From Candidatus Harpocratesius repetitus (lineage in GTDB: Archaea; Asgardarchaeota; Lokiarchaeia; Sigyniarchaeales; Promethearchaeaceae), in assembly GCA_021498095.1 (NCBI GenBank), contig JAIZWK010000001.1, positions 510,001 through 542,000 of the forward strand: a stretch of DNA of 32,000 nucleotides, read 5' to 3'. This document shows positions 17,066 through 30,503 of the stretch, piece by piece. The position numbers and the translations under genes are program-made. Each line of letters opens with the position of its first letter. Within the stretch, counting starts at the first letter, position 1. The notes beneath the pieces are model-generated. The model did not search any database, was not told the DNA's origin, and worked only from the letters and a program-made list of their open reading frames with translations.

Positions 17066-17923
17066 ATGTCATGGTTGCGAATTGAAAAGCTCACTGTTGA
17101 AGTAGAGGGAAAGAGAATTTTAAATGATTTCGATTTGAATATTGATCAAGGTGAGGTGCATGTTTTACTAGGTCCAAATGGAGCCGGAAAGACAACACTT
17201 ATCAAATCAATATTGGGTTTTAAGAATTATCACGTAGTAAATGGACATATTTACTTTAAAGATCAAGAAATCACACATTTCCCGATTAATGAGCGAATCC
17301 AAATGGGAATTGGCGTTCTGTTTCAACACCCACCTGCGATAAATGGTTTAAAACTTTCCAAATTATTAACAGTTTGTGGCGAAAAACGAGGAAATCATAA
17401 TGGAGAAATACAAGGAAATAATTATCAACAAATAGAATCGAGTAATTGCAGTGATGAATTTCCTCCATATATTCAAAGTTTAGCTGACCGCTTAAAATTT
17501 CCTCCTGATTATTTGAATCGAGATGTAAACATGGGATTTAGCGGTGGGGAAGTGAAGCGATCGGAAATTCTTCAGATGATGGTGTTGCAACCAGAATTAT
17601 TACTTTTTGATGAGCCTGATTCGGGGGTCGATGTCGAAAATGTTGAATTAATCGCCAAGATCATGCGAGAATTGCTCGATCGAGATAAAGTTCCATCAAA
17701 ACAAACAAAATCCGGATTGATAATTACTCATTTAGGTTATATTCTAAAATTTCTTGGACATATTACCCGAGCACATATAATGATGGATGGAACAATTACT
17801 TGTTCAGGCGACCCTGCGTTAATTATTCATTCAATTATGAAAAATGGTTTTGAAGCATGTCGTGAGTGCATTAGCTGCGTTGAAAGTTCAAGTATATTAA
17901 AGGAGGTTGATTTTACCCTATGA
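17066..17923 (+). CDS. sufC: SufC/SmsC Fe-S assembly ABC ATPase
   Basis: GPNGAGKT, FQHPP, RDVNMGFSGGEVKRSE, LFDEPDSGVD, IITHLG and a C-terminal CRECISC. ATGA overlap with sufB. Confidence 0.95.
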   Translation: MSWLRIEKLTVEVEGKRILNDFDLNIDQGEVHVLLGPNGAGKTTLIKSILGFKNYHVVNGHIYFKDQEITHFPINERIQMGIGVLFQHPPAINGLKLSKLLTVCGEKRGNHNGEIQGNNYQQIESSNCSDEFPPYIQSLADRLKFPPDYLNRDVNMGFSGGEVKRSEILQMMVLQPELLLFDEPDSGVDVENVELIAKIMRELLDRDKVPSKQTKSGLIITHLGYILKFLGHITRAHIMMDGTITCSGDPALIIHSIMKNGFEACRECISCVESSSILKEVDFTL

Positions 17924-19218
17924 ATACAAAGCAAAATATGACCAAAAGTGATAATGAACGTCAAATTTCATCTGAGGAAATCAAAAAGCGCGCAAAAGAA
18001 ATTATTGAAGCTGCAAGACAGAATAACGAAGACGGAATTGATTTAGACGCATACACTTTAGGTGACATTAATGAACCAGAAGCAACTATGCATTCAGAAG
18101 CGGACATCCCTGATGAATTAAAAGAATCTATGGATAAAGTGGGAATTGATATCAAAGAAAATAAAAGTGGAATCTATCTGCAAACTGGAAATAAACACGA
18201 TCTCTGCGTTAGTAATACACCGGGTGTAGAATTACTCCCAATTAAAGAAGCACTTAAAAAATATGATGGAACAGATGGAAAGTTCAATTTACAAGAATAT
18301 TTATGGAAAGCAGTACCATATGACAAAGATCAATATACAGCTGAAGCCGCCATTCAAGAAATTACCCAAGGATACTTTATCTATGCTCGAAAAGGTCAAA
18401 AAACAGTCTTTCCTTTGCAATCATGTTTGTTTGTAAATTTGCCTGGCATGAAACAAGTTGTTCATAATATTATTATTGCTGAAGAAGGTTCTGAATTAGA
18501 TATTATTACAGGTTGTTCAACACATAAAACTGCCAGAAAAGCTTTACATTTGGGAGTCTCTGAATTTTACGTAAAGAAAAATGCAAGAGTTTCTTTTACC
18601 ATGGTTCATAATTGGGCAGATGATACCAATGTTCGACCACGAACGGGTATAATTTTGGAAGATGATGCACAATTTTCCAATTTTTATATCGTTATGTCAG
18701 CGGTAAAGAATCTCCAAACCAATCCTGTTATAAAATTGGTTGGAAAAAACGCATCTTATTATGGCCAAACTTTAATTTATGGAAAAGGGGAAAGTTATTT
18801 TGATACCGGTGCAACCGCACATTTAATCGGGGAGGGCTCCAAAGCAGAAATTATTTCACGAGTATTAGCAGTAGATGGTGCTCATGTGAAAGCCAGAGGA
18901 ACGATTATAGGAGAAGGAAGAGATGTTACCGGCCATATTGATTGTTCTGCTCTAATTCTATCTGATCGATCTCGTGTTGACTCAATTCCTGAAATTCAAG
19001 CAAAAAACCCTGAAGTTACACTCACTCATGAAGCTTCGGTGGGAAAAATCGCAGATGAACATATAGAATATTTAATGAGTCGCGGCTTATCTGAAAGTGA
19101 GAGCATTAATCTAATTGTAAGTGGATTTCTCGATGTAGACACAAGCCCACTTCCAGAAAAACTTGCTAAAGAAACACAGAAAATAATTGAACTTGTTTCT
19201 GAAGCTGAGATGGGATAA
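17920..19218 (+). CDS. sufB: SufB/SmsB Fe-S scaffold
   Basis: HNIIIAEEGSELDIITGC, GHIDCSALIL, LTHEASVGKI, YLMSRGLSE, LIVSGF. Confidence 0.95.
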   Translation: MNTKQNMTKSDNERQISSEEIKKRAKEIIEAARQNNEDGIDLDAYTLGDINEPEATMHSEADIPDELKESMDKVGIDIKENKSGIYLQTGNKHDLCVSNTPGVELLPIKEALKKYDGTDGKFNLQEYLWKAVPYDKDQYTAEAAIQEITQGYFIYARKGQKTVFPLQSCLFVNLPGMKQVVHNIIIAEEGSELDIITGCSTHKTARKALHLGVSEFYVKKNARVSFTMVHNWADDTNVRPRTGIILEDDAQFSNFYIVMSAVKNLQTNPVIKLVGKNASYYGQTLIYGKGESYFDTGATAHLIGEGSKAEIISRVLAVDGAHVKARGTIIGEGRDVTGHIDCSALILSDRSRVDSIPEIQAKNPEVTLTHEASVGKIADEHIEYLMSRGLSESESINLIVSGFLDVDTSPLPEKLAKETQKIIELVSEAEMG

Positions 19219-24414: not shown

Positions 24415-24647
24415 TACTTCTATCACATTCATCCTTGCAATGTAGTCGATATCACCATAATTAAAATGTTATTTTTTTTTGATTTTCAATTTCAAGAAGT
24501 TTTGGAAGTTTTAACACCCTTAAGCGAAATTTATAAATTACCTTGAATTTTAAATTTTAACTCGCACTTGATCAAATAATTATCTAAGCAAACCCAACGT
24601 TAAGTTGTGAGAAAAATTTTACATGAATTTACTAAGTGATTGAATAT

Positions 24648-25694
24648 ATGACTGAAAAAAAAGAAAATTCTTTACAAAATTCTGAAATTAAAATACTAAA
24701 AACATCCAATTCTGCGATTTCTCAAAGTTCTTCACCCTTAAAATCATCATCTTTGATTTCTCCTTCTTCTTCCACCTCATTATCATCTGTTAGTTCGAAA
24801 ATATTAAAAATGCTTCTAAAATACAACCCTTTTGATCCAATTTGCGATTGGTCTCGGAAAGTAATGCAAGATTTAGGAATATTGGATATTTACGACGAAT
24901 TTATTTACTGGAATGTTGGAAGAGCTAATTTTATTCAATTTTTCCGAACATTTTGGGGTTATGATATTCGAGGTAAAGAGAATTTTCCAGAACATGGGGG
25001 CGCTTTGGTTATAGCCAATCACCAATCAGAATTTGATCCATTTTTAGTAGGATCTGCAGTGCATCGTAAAGTTCAGTGGTTATCAAAAGCAGAAAATTTT
25101 GAAATCCCTATTTTTCGTTCAATTATCAAACCATTTGGTACTATTCCCTTAAGAAGAGGACAAAGTGATGAAAAAGCTTTAGCAAAAGTTCGCTCTGTAT
25201 TAGAAGGAGGAGGATGTGTGGGTATGTTTCCAGAAGGAACCCGTTCTCCTGATGGAAAATTAGGGCCTTTTCATAAGGGTGCAGCACGATTATGTTTAGA
25301 AACAGGTGTACCTTATGTTCCTTGTGCAATTTTCGGAGCATATCGAGTTTTTCCAAAGCATGTGAATGTAACCGGTATACGCTGGAATAAGGGTTATAAG
25401 ATATCAGTTGTAATTGGAAACCCAGTTTATATTGACCCCTCTTTAGAATCGAATTTTGAAAATGCTGAAATGGTGAAAGATGCAATGCGCCATGATATTA
25501 TCTTATTAAAAGCAGGATTGATGAATAAATCCAGAGTATTGAGAACAAGAAAAGATATTGCACCAGTTGAACAGATTCCAGATCTTAATTCATTAGTTCG
25601 TGAAGAAATACAAATGGATCGAATAGGTAACTCGATTTCTGAAAAAGAACGGATGCAATTAGAAGCAAATTCAGACAATTTAAGCATTTCCTAA
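24648..25694 (+). CDS. plsC: 1-acyl-sn-glycerol-3-phosphate acyltransferase (PlsC family) with a Ser-rich N-terminus
   Basis: Intact catalytic NHQSEFD (HX4D; His at 25020-25022), SKAENF, FGTIPLRRG, MFPEGTRS, FHKGAARL, VPCAIFG. ATG at 24648 (alternative GTG at 24636). Confidence 0.9.
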   Translation: MTEKKENSLQNSEIKILKTSNSAISQSSSPLKSSSLISPSSSTSLSSVSSKILKMLLKYNPFDPICDWSRKVMQDLGILDIYDEFIYWNVGRANFIQFFRTFWGYDIRGKENFPEHGGALVIANHQSEFDPFLVGSAVHRKVQWLSKAENFEIPIFRSIIKPFGTIPLRRGQSDEKALAKVRSVLEGGGCVGMFPEGTRSPDGKLGPFHKGAARLCLETGVPYVPCAIFGAYRVFPKHVNVTGIRWNKGYKISVVIGNPVYIDPSLESNFENAEMVKDAMRHDIILLKAGLMNKSRVLRTRKDIAPVEQIPDLNSLVREEIQMDRIGNSISEKERMQLEANSDNLSIS

Positions 25695-25880
25695 AAAATA
25701 ATTGGGTTGCGCTTTATAATCAAAAGTTTTTTGTTGTTTTCTATTTTATTTAATTTAATTCAAGAATTGTGATAATTGTAATATTCAAAGAAAATGTAAA
25801 CTTTCATCTGGATCACAGTTAATCTTAGAAAATTAGCATGAAAATAATAGAAAAATTGTTTTAGTTTCATCTGGAGGAGA

Positions 25881-26690
25881 TTGACGATTACTGAAAATTC
25901 TGAAAAAAATTTTATTTCAAAATTCATAATTGAGCCGATTAATAACAGTATTTATGGATTGCGCCAAGTTACTAAAAAAATAGGCTATTTAGAAGCAATT
26001 GATGGCCTATTTCTTCGAGTGATAGAAGAACCACTAATGTTGAAGCTCCTCACCAGCAATTATCAGTTTGAAATCTCAGGAACTGAAAATCTAAAACAAC
26101 ACATGGAAAATGGTTGCTTATTGATTTCAAATTTTCAATCGGCAATAGATCCACTTATTTCTGGAGTATCTGTAATGCATATTACAAAAAAAATTCCCAA
26201 TCATGTGTTACCATTGAAATTGGGAGTAGATTCTCCAATAATGAATTTAGTTAGAATGAACCAAACTATATTTTCACGCACAACTGGTTTAGAAGAGGAA
26301 ACAATAGAAGAATGTCTTGCAGCATTAGAACAAAGGAAAATAATTTTTTTCTATCCTGAAATGCAGCCAAATTTAGGAAATGGTGCTTTTTTACCATTTA
26401 ATCCAGGATATATTCAAGTTGCATTTGAAAGTAAACGTCCAATAATTCCAGTGGCCATTTTTGGAACAGATCGAGTATTCGGGCCAAAAATGAAAATTCC
26501 AGCCATGAAGGGAAACATTAAAATTCGGTTTGGTAAGCCATTATTTTATGAAAACTTATTTAAAGATGTGATCTCCTTAGATTTTCGCATATTGGAAAAA
26601 GTTAACAAAAAGATTCAACGAAAAGTGAAAAATCTTTGGTCAGATATTTGGGCGGAAGAAGAAGATAAAAAGAAGAAAGATAATTCTTAA
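25881..26690 (+). CDS. PlsC-fold paralog with a degenerate active site (probable pseudo-enzyme)
   Basis: SNFQSAID replaces NHxSxxD, and FYPEMQP replaces FPEGTR. The fold motifs FNPGYIQVA..SKRPIIPVAIFGT and IRFGKPL are retained. TTG start with SD GGAGGAGA. Confidence 0.8.
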   Translation: MTITENSEKNFISKFIIEPINNSIYGLRQVTKKIGYLEAIDGLFLRVIEEPLMLKLLTSNYQFEISGTENLKQHMENGCLLISNFQSAIDPLISGVSVMHITKKIPNHVLPLKLGVDSPIMNLVRMNQTIFSRTTGLEEETIEECLAALEQRKIIFFYPEMQPNLGNGAFLPFNPGYIQVAFESKRPIIPVAIFGTDRVFGPKMKIPAMKGNIKIRFGKPLFYENLFKDVISLDFRILEKVNKKIQRKVKNLWSDIWAEEEDKKKKDNS

Positions 26691-26726
26691 TAATACTAAT
26701 CAGAACAAGAGCTTAAAAGAAGAAAA

Positions 26727-27785
26727 ATGAACGAATCGAATATTCCCCCCCGAAAAATAAAAGTAGGAATCCCTCGGGCACTTTATTTTTATCGATATGG
26801 CCCACTGTGGGTATATCTATTACGTCAATTTCAATGTGATGTAGTCATTTCTGCACCAACTTCGGCAAAAATTGTAGAAGATGGGGCAAAACAAGCTATT
26901 TCAGAATTATGTGTTCCTATGAAACTTTACTTCGGACATGTTCAAGCCCTTTTAGATGAATATCCGGATTTAGACTATGTTTTTATTCCTCGATATGTTT
27001 CTATCCATAAAAACCAGTATTACTGTCCAAAATTCCTTACTTTACCCGAAACCATTAAATACGGTATGAAATTATCGGTTCCAATCTTGACCTTAGAAGT
27101 TAATGCAAAAAAACATTATGGGATCGAAGGAGCAATCGAAATGGGTAAAACTCTTGGATTTTCTCTTGAAGATTCTGGAAAAGCTTGGATGGTTGCTTTG
27201 AAAAAGTATAATCAGCTGAAATCCAAAATGAATTCTTCAAACTACATTGATATTTTAGCAAGTCTTGACAAAAATCCGAATCATGTAATAAAGAAAAGAA
27301 AATTTCGCGAAGTTATTCCAAAAAAAATTCGAGGAAAATTTCCGTTATCCATCCTCATTTTGGGACATCCTTACAACGTGTACGAATCATATATAAATAT
27401 GCATCTAATCGAGCGATTGAAGACATTAGATTGCCATATTCTTACTATTGAAGATACTCACTCAGATCAATTCAAAAAACCGGTGAAAATTAATAAAATA
27501 TATGAGCAATACTGGCAGAGTGAAGATGAAATTTTGAAAACTGCCCGATATTATTTGAATGAGGGAAAGAAAGAAATAGATGGAGTTATTTTTCTTATTT
27601 CATTTGCTTGTGGACCAGATAGTTTAATCGAAGAATTGGTTATGCGGGATATGAAAACACGTAAAATTCCATTTTTAACATTGATACTTGATGAGCATTC
27701 TGGGGAATCAGGGATGGTTACCAGAATAGAATCATTGGTTGATATGATTCGCCGGAAAAAATATGATTCTATATCATCATCTTAA
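26727..27785 (+). CDS. DUF2229-type 2-hydroxyacyl-CoA dehydratase/reductase-like subunit (similar to the PlsA reductase domain)
   Basis: KVGIPRAL, ELCVPMKLYFGHV, VFIPR, YCPKF, ILGHPYN, SFACGPDS, LDEHSGESG..TRIESL. Confidence 0.88.
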   Translation: MNESNIPPRKIKVGIPRALYFYRYGPLWVYLLRQFQCDVVISAPTSAKIVEDGAKQAISELCVPMKLYFGHVQALLDEYPDLDYVFIPRYVSIHKNQYYCPKFLTLPETIKYGMKLSVPILTLEVNAKKHYGIEGAIEMGKTLGFSLEDSGKAWMVALKKYNQLKSKMNSSNYIDILASLDKNPNHVIKKRKFREVIPKKIRGKFPLSILILGHPYNVYESYINMHLIERLKTLDCHILTIEDTHSDQFKKPVKINKIYEQYWQSEDEILKTARYYLNEGKKEIDGVIFLISFACGPDSLIEELVMRDMKTRKIPFLTLILDEHSGESGMVTRIESLVDMIRRKKYDSISSS

Positions 27786-27790
27786 AAATT

Positions 27791-29098
27791 ATGGGAGATT
27801 CTCAGATAATGACAAAAATTATTAGTTTTCCTTCTATGGGATGGAGTAGAATTGCTTTTCGCGCGTTATTTGAAAAATTACCTGGCGTCACAGTATTTCC
27901 TCCTCCTCCAGTTACCCGTGATATTGTCAAAATGGGAGCCAAAATCTCTCCTGAATTCGTATGTTTTCCCTTTAAAGTTACCCTTGGCGAATTTGTTAAT
28001 ATGATCGAAAATCATGATATTCATACATTTGTAATGTCAATAGATTGCGGGCCTTGCCGTTTGGGTTTTTATGCACCTATCCAAGAGAAAATCTTAAAGG
28101 ATTTGGGTTATGATGTGGAAATCATTCCAATTCAACAAGATGATTTACTAAATTTCAAGTGGACAAAAACTTTACTTCAATTATCAAATGTGACAAACCC
28201 AATTATGAAATACTACGACGTTATCCGTTGTACTCGTCTTGCTTTAGTAAAAATGAGCTATATTGCAGATATTACCCGATTAGAAGGTTTAATCCGATGT
28301 CGAGAAATTCACAAGGGAGATACAACTCGTGTAGTAAAAAATCTAATGGATCAACTTGATAATGAATGGGATCTTCAAGTTCTTCATCATTTTGATAAGG
28401 TAATTCAAACAGCTTTTGCAAAAATTAGAATAAAGCACGACATCGAACCTTTACGGGTGATAGTTACAGGAGAAAATCATATCGTTATGGAACCTTTTAT
28501 CAATATGGATATTGTCCGAAAATTTGGTGAAGAAGGTGTAGAAGTTCATTTGGCAAATAGTTTATATGGTTGGATTTTACATAAACTTCACATAAATGCA
28601 GAACGCAAAAAATTGGAGAAACTATCCAAACCATACATTCCACTGGATATCGGTGGTGAAGCAATATGGGTAGTTGGACATTACATTGAAGGTCAAAACC
28701 AGGGATTTGACGGATTTATTCACTTATATCCATTTACTTGTATGCCTGAAAACACTGCCCGAGGAATACTGGAAGGACAAAGTCCTGATCCTTTTTATCT
28801 ACCTATTCAATTTTATAGTATTGATGAACATACAGGTTATGAAGGTATGCGAACCCGTCTGGAAAGCTTTATTGATTTAATGAACTCAAATCGGCAAGGA
28901 AATCCAAAATTCCAAAATAAATATAGAGAACCATCAGAAATCAAAGCAATTTATGATAAAAAAGTCCCTTTAACAAATCATTCACCATTATTTTCTGAGG
29001 TTCTCACCCCATTTACTAATAACTTGAATATTTTAATATCGGAGCTTTTTAATATGAAAGCTACAAAACAAAATACAAAGGGAGATAGAAATACTTAA
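27791..29098 (+). CDS. Second 2-hydroxyacyl-CoA dehydratase/reductase-like subunit (PlsR-like)
   Basis: FPSMG, FVCFPFKVTLGEF, GPCRLGFY, VTGE, PFINMDI, HLYPFTCMPE, IDEHTGYEG..TRLESF. TAATG coupling to the next gene. Confidence 0.85.
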   Translation: MGDSQIMTKIISFPSMGWSRIAFRALFEKLPGVTVFPPPPVTRDIVKMGAKISPEFVCFPFKVTLGEFVNMIENHDIHTFVMSIDCGPCRLGFYAPIQEKILKDLGYDVEIIPIQQDDLLNFKWTKTLLQLSNVTNPIMKYYDVIRCTRLALVKMSYIADITRLEGLIRCREIHKGDTTRVVKNLMDQLDNEWDLQVLHHFDKVIQTAFAKIRIKHDIEPLRVIVTGENHIVMEPFINMDIVRKFGEEGVEVHLANSLYGWILHKLHINAERKKLEKLSKPYIPLDIGGEAIWVVGHYIEGQNQGFDGFIHLYPFTCMPENTARGILEGQSPDPFYLPIQFYSIDEHTGYEGMRTRLESFIDLMNSNRQGNPKFQNKYREPSEIKAIYDKKVPLTNHSPLFSEVLTPFTNNLNILISELFNMKATKQNTKGDRNT

Positions 29099-30225
29099 TG
29101 GAAAAACAAGAATTGGAAGAAACCAAGCATATCACTTCAGTAAGCCTTGAAACACAATCAATGAAAACCCAAATAAATCAAGAATCGAAATTTAAAGAAA
29201 TTCGTAATGTATTTATGGGTATTGATATCGGATCTGTTTCCATTAAAATTCTACTACTAGATGAACAAGAAAACATTATTGAACGGTTGTGGTTGCGAAA
29301 TCAAGGTAGTCCAATTGAATCTTCAAAAAAGGGATTGGCTCAATTAAAGAGACAATTGGAAGATCATGGGATTTTAAACAAGATTCGAATTATTGGTGTA
29401 GGAACTACAGGTTCTGCACGATATCTTATCAAAAGTGTTATTGGTGGAGATATAGCAAAAACTGAAATTATTGCACACGCCGTGGCGGCTATTCATTATA
29501 ATCCAGAGGTTCGAACAATTTTAGAAATTGGTGGACAAGATTCGAAAATTATAATACTCAGAAATGGTATTGTTTCAGATTTTGCAATGAATTCTGTGTG
29601 TGCAGCCGGAACAGGCAGCTTTCTCGATCATCAAGCCAGTCGATTAGGTATTCCAATTGAAAAATTTGGAGAATATGCACTTCGAGCGAGTGAGAATGTT
29701 ACAATTGCAGGCCGTTGTGGAGTTTTTGCAGAAAGTGATATGATTCATAAAGCTCAAATGGGATATTCAAAAGAAAGCATCATCCGTGGATTGTGCGATG
29801 CATTAGTTCGTAATTATTTAAACAATGTTGGAAAAGGTAAAGAAATAGAAGAACCAATTCTATTTCAAGGGGGAGTTGCATTTAATAAAGGCTTGATTAA
29901 AGCATTTCAAGAAGAATTACATAAAAAAGTAATTGTTCCCGAAAATGGCTTGAATATAATGATGGGCGCTTACGGTGCAGCGTTATTGGTTAAAGAAGAA
30001 GCAGAACGAACTCAGAAAATGATTGGAACTTGGGAAACTAAATTCAGAGGATTCGATCTTTTGCATTTTGATTTTGAAACAAAAGCATTTCAATGTCAAG
30101 GTTGCCCAAATCGTTGTGAAGTGGTTTCTGTATATATGCATAAAAAAGACGAAGAAACTGGAGAAGAGAAGAAAGAATTAGTTGCCCGCTGGGGAGATCG
30201 TTGCGGTAAATGGGCTGTTTACTAA
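29098..30225 (+). CDS. ATP-dependent [4Fe-4S] activator (HgdC/BadF-BadG/BcrA-BcrD ASKHA family) with a C-terminal Cys cluster
   Basis: GIDIGSVSIK, GTTGSAR, TEIIAHA, EIGGQDSK, MNSVCAAGTGSFLD, CGVFAESD, FQGGVAFN, then CQGCPNRC...GDRC. Confidence 0.93.
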   Translation: MEKQELEETKHITSVSLETQSMKTQINQESKFKEIRNVFMGIDIGSVSIKILLLDEQENIIERLWLRNQGSPIESSKKGLAQLKRQLEDHGILNKIRIIGVGTTGSARYLIKSVIGGDIAKTEIIAHAVAAIHYNPEVRTILEIGGQDSKIIILRNGIVSDFAMNSVCAAGTGSFLDHQASRLGIPIEKFGEYALRASENVTIAGRCGVFAESDMIHKAQMGYSKESIIRGLCDALVRNYLNNVGKGKEIEEPILFQGGVAFNKGLIKAFQEELHKKVIVPENGLNIMMGAYGAALLVKEEAERTQKMIGTWETKFRGFDLLHFDFETKAFQCQGCPNRCEVVSVYMHKKDEETGEEKKELVARWGDRCGKWAVY

Positions 30226-30251
30226 TCACTTTAAATTAAGGGTTTTTAATC

Positions 30252-30503
30252 ATGGATAACAATAACTTTTCTATTTCGCAGAAAAATAAGTTAAATGAAA
30301 AATCATCTTCAATCAAATCTTTAATTGATGTAGATAAAGTAATTAGTGATATAAAAAAAATAGCTAGACAAATTCAAACTCCTTCAGATTTATTGGATTT
30401 AACTTGGGAACAACTAATTCCTAAGATAGTTAAGGAAAAAACGGATGACTTTTTCCAAAACGCTCAAAAAACGATTGATTATTTTTTCCGACACTTAATT
30501 TAA
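30252..30503 (+). CDS. Small hypothetical protein (83 aa), last gene of the cluster
   Basis: ATG 26 nt after the activator stop, same strand, with helical amphipathic-looking sequence. Confidence 0.55.
   Translation: MDNNNFSISQKNKLNEKSSSIKSLIDVDKVISDIKKIARQIQTPSDLLDLTWEQLIPKIVKEKTDDFFQNAQKTIDYFFRHLI

Follow-up and report, generated by a model that had tools for sequence, protein, structure and literature searches.

What the PlsC homologues of Lokiarchaeota do has been debated since 2017 and has been called unresolved (PMC9385802). The locus described here raises the question of whether such an acyltransferase may work together with a reductase that turns acyl esters into ethers. The window (the whole 32,000-nt stretch of DNA analyzed, from Candidatus Harpocratesius repetitus) contains, at positions 24648 to 30503, six + strand open reading frames with intergenic gaps of 186, 36, 5, −1, and 26 nt in the ORF listing, an exact match to the co-oriented genes and gap sizes given in a preliminary description made from the sequence. 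That description had named an intact PlsC, a degenerate PlsC, a DUF2229 subunit, a second dehydratase-like subunit, an HgdC-type activator, and a small ORF. Pfam and NCBIfam profile searches of all six proteins, together with motifs and a structure model of P0004, confirmed these identities, as follows.

24648 to 25694, + strand: P0001, PlsC/LPLAT-family acyltransferase with intact catalytic motifs (PF01553, 105 bits; NHQSEFD and FPEGTRS)
25695 to 25880, no strand: 186-nt spacer between P0001 and P0002, with a T-rich run past the P0001 stop and GGAGGAG ahead of the P0002 TTG start
25881 to 26690, + strand: P0002, catalytically degenerate PlsC paralogue (PF01553, 45 bits; NFQSAID and YPEMQP)
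26727 to 27785, + strand: P0003, Red1 subunit with a full DUF2229 domain and the C-terminal end of HGD-D (PF09989, 154 bits)
27791 to 29098, + strand: P0004, Red2 (PlsR-position) subunit with a BCR/HAD beta-like fold (AlphaFold model; short DUF2229 piece)
29098 to 30225, + strand: P0005, single-domain HgdC-type ATPase activase (TIGR00241, 184 bits; PF01869, 154 bits)
30252 to 30503, + strand: P0006, small ORF of 83 aa (no family match)

No Pfam or NCBIfam family matched P0006, homologues of which lie in the same position, directly after the activase gene, in four same-family genomes (E values of 4e-20 to 2e-6). A hydropathy scan found no transmembrane segments in any of the six proteins. The 186-nt spacer gave a single blastn match in its own genome, which ruled out a repeat element, and the same P0001-P0002 junction measures 20 nt in the same-genus genome G089 and 140 nt in genome G094.

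P0001 starts at an ATG at 24648, with an upstream GTG at 24636 also open, and has a Ser-rich N terminus with no hydrophobic stretch above a KD value of 1.04. It carries both the HX4D motif (NHQSEFD) and the block III PEGTR motif (FPEGTRS) of PF01553, a family whose enzymes produce O-acyl lipid esters. The closest solved structure is that of Thermotoga maritima PlsC (5KYM; E value of 3e-17), which P0001 resembles in these two motifs. It differs from bacterial PlsC in being without a membrane anchor and in scoring 91.1 bits against the 1-acyl-G3P acyltransferase (AGPAT) model TIGR00530, below the cut-off of 102.95; a tandem relative (L045) scored 151 bits against this model. In P0002, the His of HX4D is changed to Phe (NFQSAID) and PEGTR has become PEMQP (YPEMQP), and since both motifs are lost, P0002 is a PF01553 member by fold only.

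We found that P0001 best matches domain 1 of the tandem acyltransferase that relatives carry and that P0002 best matches domain 2 of the tandem proteins of family f2, in which the second domain retains NHNSEWD and YPEGTT. The His-to-Phe change is limited to two same-genus genomes. By these sequence comparisons, P0002 results from genus-level decay of domain 2 in a tandem ancestor whose two acyltransferase domains were both intact. The earlier label of pseudo-PlsC holds for this gene but describes a degeneracy confined to the genus, as most relatives have an intact second domain within one tandem protein. Bacterial PlsC and tandem or HAD-linked acyltransferases are the nearest known systems; P0001 differs from them in its ancestral form, a protein of two domains (three in class-level relatives) accompanied by a HAD phosphatase, and in the source genus the second domain has become separate and its His is lost.

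P0003 contains the DUF2229 domain (154 bits) of the PlsA/PlsR-Ger group, and its C62, C100, and C295, which are invariant in 61 of 61 homologues, are presumed to be [4Fe-4S] cluster ligands. By sequence, P0004 has only a short DUF2229 piece (33 bits). Its AlphaFold model (pLDDT of 87) matched only catalytic subunits of BCR/HAD enzymes: all of the top 20 PDB matches are DCCP, MbdON, HadBC, or BzdNO, and the Swiss-Prot fold matches are FldC, LcdB, YjiM, HadC, BcrC, and HgdB, with PlsA/PlsR absent from this set. C58, C89, and C317 of P0004 are invariant in all 56 homologues, and P0003 and P0004 represent the two paralogous catalytic subunits, each with presumed cluster Cys residues, that characterize the BCR/HAD group. 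P0005 scored above the TIGR00241 cut-off of 125 bits and matched MbdQ, HadI, and HgdC in the PDB. It is an ASKHA activase with two cluster-bridging Cys residues per monomer, C168 and C207, which lie 39 residues apart, the spacing of Cys127 and Cys166 in HgdC. A C-terminal CxxCxxxC...C motif (C333, C336, C340, and C369) corresponds to the linker of the fused proteins considered below. None of 50 homologues varies in these six Cys residues or in the GxDxGS motif.

The triad thus has in common with HgdABC, HadIBC, FldIBC, BcrABCD/MbdONPQ, and DCCP the activase fold with its bridging Cys pair, the catalytic-subunit fold, and the logic of ATP-driven electron injection. It is set apart from this group by the extra 4-Cys motif of P0005 and by the lack of a CoA-transferase or acyl-CoA context at this locus. 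Red1 and Red2 are only marginally similar to HGD-D (PF06050), with 20 bits across ~60 C-terminal residues, and profile matches assign the triad to the DUF2229 branch, not to the classical HGD-D acyl-CoA dehydratases. The only characterized DUF2229 enzymes are PlsA/PlsR and Ger, which convert glycerolipid sn-1 acyl esters to vinyl or alkyl ethers (PMC13159169, PMC12838417).

When aligned to fused Act-Act-Red1-Red2 (BBD) proteins, P0005 corresponds to the second activase domain plus the linker, P0003 to Red1 (residues ~660 to 980), and P0004 to Red2 (residues ~995 to 1380), which bears out the module identity with PlsA/PlsR/Ger proposed in the preliminary description. PlsA/PlsR (Clostridium perfringens CPE1194/1195, with single-gene forms in Enterococcus and Lactococcus) are oxygen-sensitive Fe-S proteins built from the same HgdC-type activase, DUF2229, and second dehydratase-like domains, in a fused order colinear with P0005, P0003, and P0004. 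In contrast to PlsA/PlsR, the triad has a single activase domain instead of a pair, its three parts are separate genes in the order Red1-Red2-Act, linked to PF01553 acyltransferases, and the Red1 identity to fused forms is only ~25%. In a tree built for the Red1 subunit only, P0003 falls in a clade of split Red1-Red2-activase triads, apart from all fused BBD(R) proteins (SH-aLRT of 99). The tree contains no experimentally verified PlsA or Ger, and we assume from domain architecture that these belong to the fused clade; on that assumption, the branching with PlsA/Ger foreseen earlier was not recovered. Searches with relatives of the genome's own fused protein returned neither T. maritima nor C. 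perfringens, and NCBIfam has no PlsA/PlsR model.

Elsewhere, this genome encodes two canonical fused BBD-type paralogues of 1448 and 1482 aa, with PF09989 scores of 254 and 191 bits versus 154 for P0003 and with no lipid-gene neighbors beside either gene. Ger (T. maritima Tmari_0479; Desulfatibacillum alkenivorans SHJ90043) shares the superfamily and the B, D, and H domain pieces with the triad. It is defined by the BBD architecture (PMC13159169), a core of two activase domains fused to DUF2229, whereas the window encodes its parts separately, with an activase of one domain, so the two fused paralogues fit Ger better. They are likelier than the split triad to be the counterparts of the Lokiarchaeota Ger homologues published in 2022 along with the idea of bacterial-type ether lipids in Asgard archaea (PMC13159169). 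The split proteins would have escaped the published Ger search criteria (E value of at most 1e-50 and coverage of at least 30%; PMC13159169).

We also found that the adjacency of acyltransferase and Red1 genes is kept in ~58 Lokiarchaeial genomes. In ~56 of these, a PF01553 gene shares the strand of Red1 and ends no more than ~110 nt from it, and two further genomes have gaps of 0.6 to 1.1 kb; most gaps are 20 to 110 nt. The adjacency spans the main sampled families, f1 and f2, plus one f18 genome, down to 43 to 50% protein identity, and the two genes lie within 2.5 to 3.8 kb of each other in f3 and f4 genomes. Conservation of the plsC linkage across Asgard genomes had been set beforehand as a check, and since the linkage is strongly conserved in Lokiarchaeia, it withstood that attempt at refutation. 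In family f2, the operon additionally encodes a HAD phosphatase, an acyltransferase of two domains that each keep an intact HX4D motif, and a short third acyltransferase. Downstream sequence was available for eight f2 loci, and in three of them Red1 is directly followed by a PlsA-style BBD gene and one resembling PlsR. A LarA-like 2-hydroxyacid racemase gene is inserted in the operon of class-level relatives. What these comparisons add to the preliminary description is the ~58-genome adjacency, with its added phosphatase, acyltransferase, and PlsA/PlsR-style genes, and the tandem origin of the pseudo-PlsC.

The explanation that we tentatively prefer, at slightly less than an even chance, is that, in this conserved Lokiarchaeial operon, the formation of O-acyl esters is coupled to a low-potential one-electron enzyme of the DUF2229 branch, driven by ATP, that would convert ester to ether. 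P0001, with its dead partner P0002, would use acyl-CoA or acyl-ACP to acylate an acceptor of the glycerol-phosphate type. A P0005 homodimer with a bridging [4Fe-4S] cluster would receive an electron donated by ferredoxin and pass it, with hydrolysis of ATP, into a P0003/P0004 heterodimer, each subunit of which is predicted to carry a 3-Cys [4Fe-4S] cluster. There, the ester carbonyl would become a ketyl radical, and removal of the oxygen would leave an alk-1-enyl (plasmalogen-type) or alkyl ether. The electron donor, substrate, and ether product in this scheme are assigned by homology.

Support for the ester-to-ether reading comes from the observed gene set, domains and motifs, colinearity, invariant Cys residues, and acyltransferase linkage; from the P0004 fold; from the reactions of the characterized DUF2229 enzymes; from the phosphatase, the added acyltransferases, and the PlsA/PlsR-style genes in f2 loci; and from genes of the same genome for a GpsA-like G3P dehydrogenase and for a type I FAS/PUFA-like megasynthase. 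Against it stand the low identity of Red1 to fused forms and its separate clade, the lack of a lipid context in bacteria (see below), the fused paralogues as possible real Ger/PlsA equivalents, and the lack of transmembrane segments. Further points against it are the P0001 score below the TIGR00530 cut-off, the failure to find a PlsY, and the lipids of the cultured same-family relative MK-D1, from which ether cleavage released nothing but phytane and biphytanes (PMC7015854). Isoprenoid lipids are all that cultured relatives have shown so far. The rarity of the megasynthase, found in 6 of 69 operon-bearing f2 genomes, also counts against it. The tandem acyltransferase occurs in 61 of the same 69, and the megasynthase is therefore not supported across f2 as the acyl supplier of the operon.

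The split-triad clade is common to hundreds of anaerobic bacteria, and PlsC lies within 8 kb of the triad in only 1 of 80 bacterial loci, among which we found no recurring lipid-gene neighbor. Some bacterial triads sit after the spoVA operon, and many bacterial genomes encode either a pair of triads or one triad together with a fused form, a pattern suggestive of non-redundant roles. These findings bear on a second explanation, which we consider fairly unlikely: that the triad is an ATP-driven radical dehydratase/reductase for another substrate, such as a functional group of an acyl chain or a non-glycerolipid ester, held by or on its way to the acyltransferases, which with the HAD phosphatase would build an unusual acylated, non-ether product. 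The distinctness of the split clade from the fused PlsA/Ger type, the bacterial contexts and multiple systems just described, the racemase inside the operon of class-level relatives, and a Red1 paralogue fused to a VAO/PCMH-type flavoprotein are in line with this explanation. They must be set against the O-acyl lipid esters formed by PF01553 enzymes, a DUF2229 branch with no characterized member that acts on soluble CoA esters, HGD-D similarity limited to the C-terminal ~60 residues, and PlsA/PlsR-style genes at the same locus in some genomes.

Less probable again is that the window triad is a redundant or specialized paralogue and that the real ester-to-ether enzymes are the two fused proteins, with the triad perhaps acting on the same lipid class but preferring another position, head group, or chain, or else making a neutral ether lipid via the HAD phosphatase and third acyltransferase. 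The fused proteins do outscore P0003 on PF09989 and have the Ger-defining BBD architecture (PMC13159169), and the f2 operon, with three acyltransferase domains and a phosphatase, reads as a Kennedy-type parts list, but the fused genes are without lipid neighbors, and sequence evidence does not tell the substrates of fused and split systems apart. Finally, the T-rich 186-nt spacer that parts P0001 from the remaining genes would suit an adjacency without functional meaning, which we regard as very improbable given its retention in ~58 genomes with mostly short gaps and a P0001-P0002 spacer of 20 nt in a same-genus genome.

The near-universal operonic coupling of Lokiarchaeota PlsC homologues to a PlsA/Ger-superfamily reductase makes ester-to-ether conversion a concrete, expression-testable hypothesis in the lipid-divide debate. 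As the idea of bacterial-type ether lipids in Asgard archaea is in print and cultured relatives have so far shown isoprenoid lipids only, the finding sharpens an existing hypothesis and is no surprise. A broader version, that Lokiarchaeia have a dedicated, vertically inherited operon making non-isoprenoid alk(en)yl-acyl glycerolipids, so that the archaea closest to eukaryotes would possess ether lipids derived from fatty acids, and that bacterial split triads are by extension an unrecognized second type of ester-to-ether lipid synthase, is in our judgment doubtful. The split-triad family is large, with thousands of clusters, and is missed by current Ger/PlsA surveys. Cultured bacteria that have triads without a fused form, Caldanaerobacter subterraneus and Halanaerobium congolense, offer an easy entry for testing triad function.

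The Red1 paralogues fused to a VAO/PCMH-type flavoprotein are 800-aa FAD-fused proteins. An in-frame TGA (selenocysteine) in them was ruled out, as the TGA is the terminal stop and the next gene overlaps it. Alkyl-DHAP synthase was also ruled out as the identity of the FAD domain, which scored only 22 bits for AGPS and has cytokinin oxidase, EncM, and DprE1 as its best PDB matches.

The preliminary description placed six co-oriented genes at positions 24648 to 30503 of the window, and our ORF calls agree with it exactly, including the intergenic gaps of 186, 36, 5, -1, and 26 nt. Family searches gave the following assignments.

24636/24648-25694, plus strand: P0001, PF01553 acyltransferase (105 bits) with the motifs NHQSEFD and FPEGTRS
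25881-26690, plus strand: P0002, weak PF01553 match (45 bits) with the motifs NFQSAID and YPEMQP
26727-27785, plus strand: P0003 (Red1), full DUF2229 domain (154 bits) and the last 60 residues of HGD-D
27791-29098, plus strand: P0004 (Red2), a 50-residue piece of DUF2229 only
29098-30225, plus strand: P0005 (activase), scoring 184 bits on the model for acyl-CoA dehydratase activases, above its cut-off of 125
30252-30503, plus strand: P0006, small ORF, no family match

The earlier identifications hold for an intact PlsC (P0001, with both catalytic motifs), a degenerate PlsC (P0002, whose motifs lack the catalytic His and the Arg that binds phosphate), a DUF2229 subunit (P0003), an HgdC-type activator (P0005), and a small ORF (P0006). 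A hydrophobicity scan of all six proteins detected no segment of membrane-helix length. The flanks hold housekeeping genes unrelated to the cluster. One flank contains SufC/SufBD, methyltransferases, an Rpb4-like subunit of RNA polymerase (PF03874), L21e, and an M24 peptidase; the other contains an Ig-like surface protein. The genes for the SufC-like ABC ATPase and the SufBD-core protein of Fe-S cluster assembly (17066-19218, plus strand) stand upstream of the Fe-S enzyme cluster at a distance of 5.4 kb, with minus-strand housekeeping genes in between, and their closeness is probably coincidental.

By phmmer, the triad proteins (Red1, Red2, and activase) are strictly colinear with 1400-aa fused proteins: P0005 matches the second activase domain and the linker behind it, P0003 approximately residues 660 to 980 (Red1), and P0004 approximately residues 995 to 1380 (Red2, the PlsR position). 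When 50 to 61 homologues were compared per protein, C62, C100, and C295 of P0003 and C58, C89, and C317 of P0004 were invariant. So were, in P0005, the Cys pair C168/C207, the phosphate loop with its GxDxGS motif, and an additional CxxCxxxC...C motif. The 39-residue spacing of C168 and C207 is presumably that of Cys127 and Cys166 of HgdC. An AlphaFold model of P0004, built from 30 homologues (pLDDT 87), matched only BCR/HAD catalytic subunits in the PDB (DCCP, MbdON, HadBC, and BzdNO) and FldC, LcdB, YjiM, HadC, BcrC, and HgdB in Swiss-Prot, a predicted fold that bears out the second dehydratase-like subunit of the preliminary description. Given this colinearity, the invariant Cys residues, and the BCR/HAD-type model, we assign the triad to the DUF2229 branch as an intact radical enzyme that carries Fe-S clusters and is driven by ATP.

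Two further DUF2229 genes in the Harpocratesius genome both have the canonical BBD architecture (two activase domains plus DUF2229).

G000:C1:2590080-2594528 (L005:8081-12529): fused activase-activase-DUF2229-Red2, 1482 aa
G000:C1:4117575-4121921 (L006:8576-12922): fused activase-activase-DUF2229-Red2, 1448 aa

Their DUF2229 scores (254 and 191 bits) are well above that of P0003; their neighbors are a citrate-type transporter, an aminotransferase, a TetR regulator, and a methyltransferase, with no lipid genes beside them. It is more likely these two proteins, rather than the triad, that correspond to the published Asgard homologues of glycerol ester reductase (Ger). P0003 is only ~25% identical to fused forms and 30 to 40% identical to stand-alone proteins of 300 to 350 aa (2440 clusters at E <=1e-3, 362 at E <=1e-30), whose named members, from Petroclostridium, Carboxydothermus, and Omnitrophota, each lie within a Red1-Red2-activase triad. 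In a maximum likelihood tree computed from 74 Red1 domains with a quick IQ-TREE search, the split-type proteins, comprising bacterial triads, the Lokiarchaeial PlsC-linked set, a second Asgard set, and flavoprotein fusions, part from all fused BBD(R) proteins (SH-aLRT 99), which include both Harpocratesius paralogues and a Petrotogaceae protein. The kinship proposed earlier with Ger and the clostridial plasmalogen synthase PlsA/PlsR stands for the shared, colinear modules. In the Red1 tree the triad would branch apart from PlsA and Ger, whose position on the fused side is assumed from published architecture, as the tree holds no verified sequence of either. In family f2, a Red1 paralogue (L056:7128-9641, minus strand; P0127-P0129) is fused behind a VAO/PCMH-type FAD domain of ~480 aa, and its own activase and two Red2 genes come next. 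Among solved structures, cytokinin oxidase, EncM, and DprE1 are closest to this FAD domain, rather than alkyl-DHAP synthase.

Synteny with plsC is kept across Lokiarchaeia. In a sample of 300 Asgard genomes, whose relatedness makes the counts nonindependent, P0003-type genes (41 to 86% identity) occur in the main Lokiarchaeial families f1 (6/6) and f2 (57/69) and in f3 and f4, and more distant split triads (30 to 36%) occur in f7 and f29. The tandem acyltransferase was found in f1 (5/6), f2 (61/69), f3, and f4 and in none of the 28 f7 or 11 f29 genomes. Comparing the coordinates of both searches, we found acyltransferase and Red1 on one contig and strand in ~58 genomes, with the acyltransferase ending within ~110 nt of Red1 in ~56 of them; the linkage was verified gene by gene in 20 fetched loci. 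The f2 acyltransferase is a single 555- to 572-aa protein with two PF01553 domains, both keeping HX4D and PEGT; P0001 matches the first and P0002 the second, and the His-to-Phe decay of the second was seen only in the three genomes of the Harpocratesius genus. A HAD_2 phosphatase lies directly upstream in f2 loci, and a third, short and motif-poor acyltransferase follows the activase in both f2 loci whose downstream genes were examined (L045 and L048). In 3/8 f2 loci with downstream sequence, Red1 is followed directly by a PlsA/PlsR-style pair, made up of a BBD gene (977 aa) and a gene (469 aa) whose product resembles, as a homologue, the Red2 portion of the fused Harpocratesius protein F2. 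In the f3 and f4 relatives, the acyltransferase has three domains; in the f3 locus, a LarA-like gene and a HAD fusion stand between it and the triad.

In species genomes, at least 588 relatives were found, and 80 bacterial loci were kept, mostly from Bacillota with some from Thermotogota and Sumerlaeota. The triad is complete and in unchanged order in 75 of these, only 1 has a PF01553 gene closer than 8 kb, and the most frequent neighbor occurs in at most 15. A spoVA operon directly precedes the triad in ~11; these Bacillota loci (L144, L149, L150, L137, and ~7 more) carry SpoVAC, SpoVAD, and SpoVAE/GerA-like genes, with a sigma factor gene upstream, and the triad stands ahead of a DAP-decarboxylase-like gene. 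All five bacterial genomes checked, except an incomplete Kosmotogales MAG, contain either a pair of triads or one triad together with a fused protein. Pseudobacteroides cellulosolvens has two triads and one fused form, with a 1412-aa BBD-Red2 gene directly after one split triad (L084:8001-15579); Caldanaerobacter subterraneus and Halanaerobium congolense have two triads each and no fused form.

The only DUF2229 enzymes characterized so far act on glycerolipids, whose sn-1 acyl esters they reduce (PMC13159169, PMC12838417). This activity and the conserved coupling to PF01553 enzymes argue for an acyl-ester lipid as the putative triad substrate, so that conversion of an acyl ester to a vinyl or alkyl ether is the best single hypothesis. 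Against it stand the separate clade, the lack of lipid genes around bacterial triads, the canonical fused paralogues found elsewhere in this genome, and the lack of membrane anchors, and it is weakened by the purely isoprenoid lipids found after ether cleavage in MK-D1, a cultured member of the same family (PMC7015854). We hold ester-to-ether conversion by the triad only tentatively, at somewhat under even chances. A different substrate, processed jointly with the acyltransferases, we regard as somewhat less likely. With regard to ester-to-ether conversion, Ger homologues of Lokiarchaeota and Heimdallarchaeota are already published and bacterial-type ether lipids in Asgard archaea already suggested as a possibility (PMC13159169), as are PlsC homologues of Lokiarchaeota, their function still termed open (PMC9385802). 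A literature search turned up no publication on the split-triad family, on its association in one operon with a tandem acyltransferase and a phosphatase across Lokiarchaeia, or on the decay of the second acyltransferase domain that is specific to this genus.

The Harpocratesius genome, a 93.6%-complete single contig of 4.36 Mb, gave no match to PlsY (PF02660) or PcrB-type GGGPS (PF01884), and GGGPS is likewise reported missing in MK-D1 (PMC7015854). It contains a GpsA-like gene (172 bits), weak Fe-ADH_2 matches, a third PlsC outside the cluster, and one megasynthase gene.

G000:C1:864087-875474 (L171:2088-13475): type I FAS/PUFA-synthase-like megasynthase, 3795 aa

Relatives of 3300 to 3600 aa are common in the other Asgard families f7 (25/28), f29 (11/11), and f16 (10/11), and their presence in only 6/69 f2 genomes rules out the megasynthase as a general partner of the acyltransferase-triad operon. 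Its domains are an NMO-type ER, KS, AT, four tandem ACP, KR, DH, and PPTase, and its neighbors encode an acyl-CoA carboxyltransferase and an alpha/beta hydrolase.
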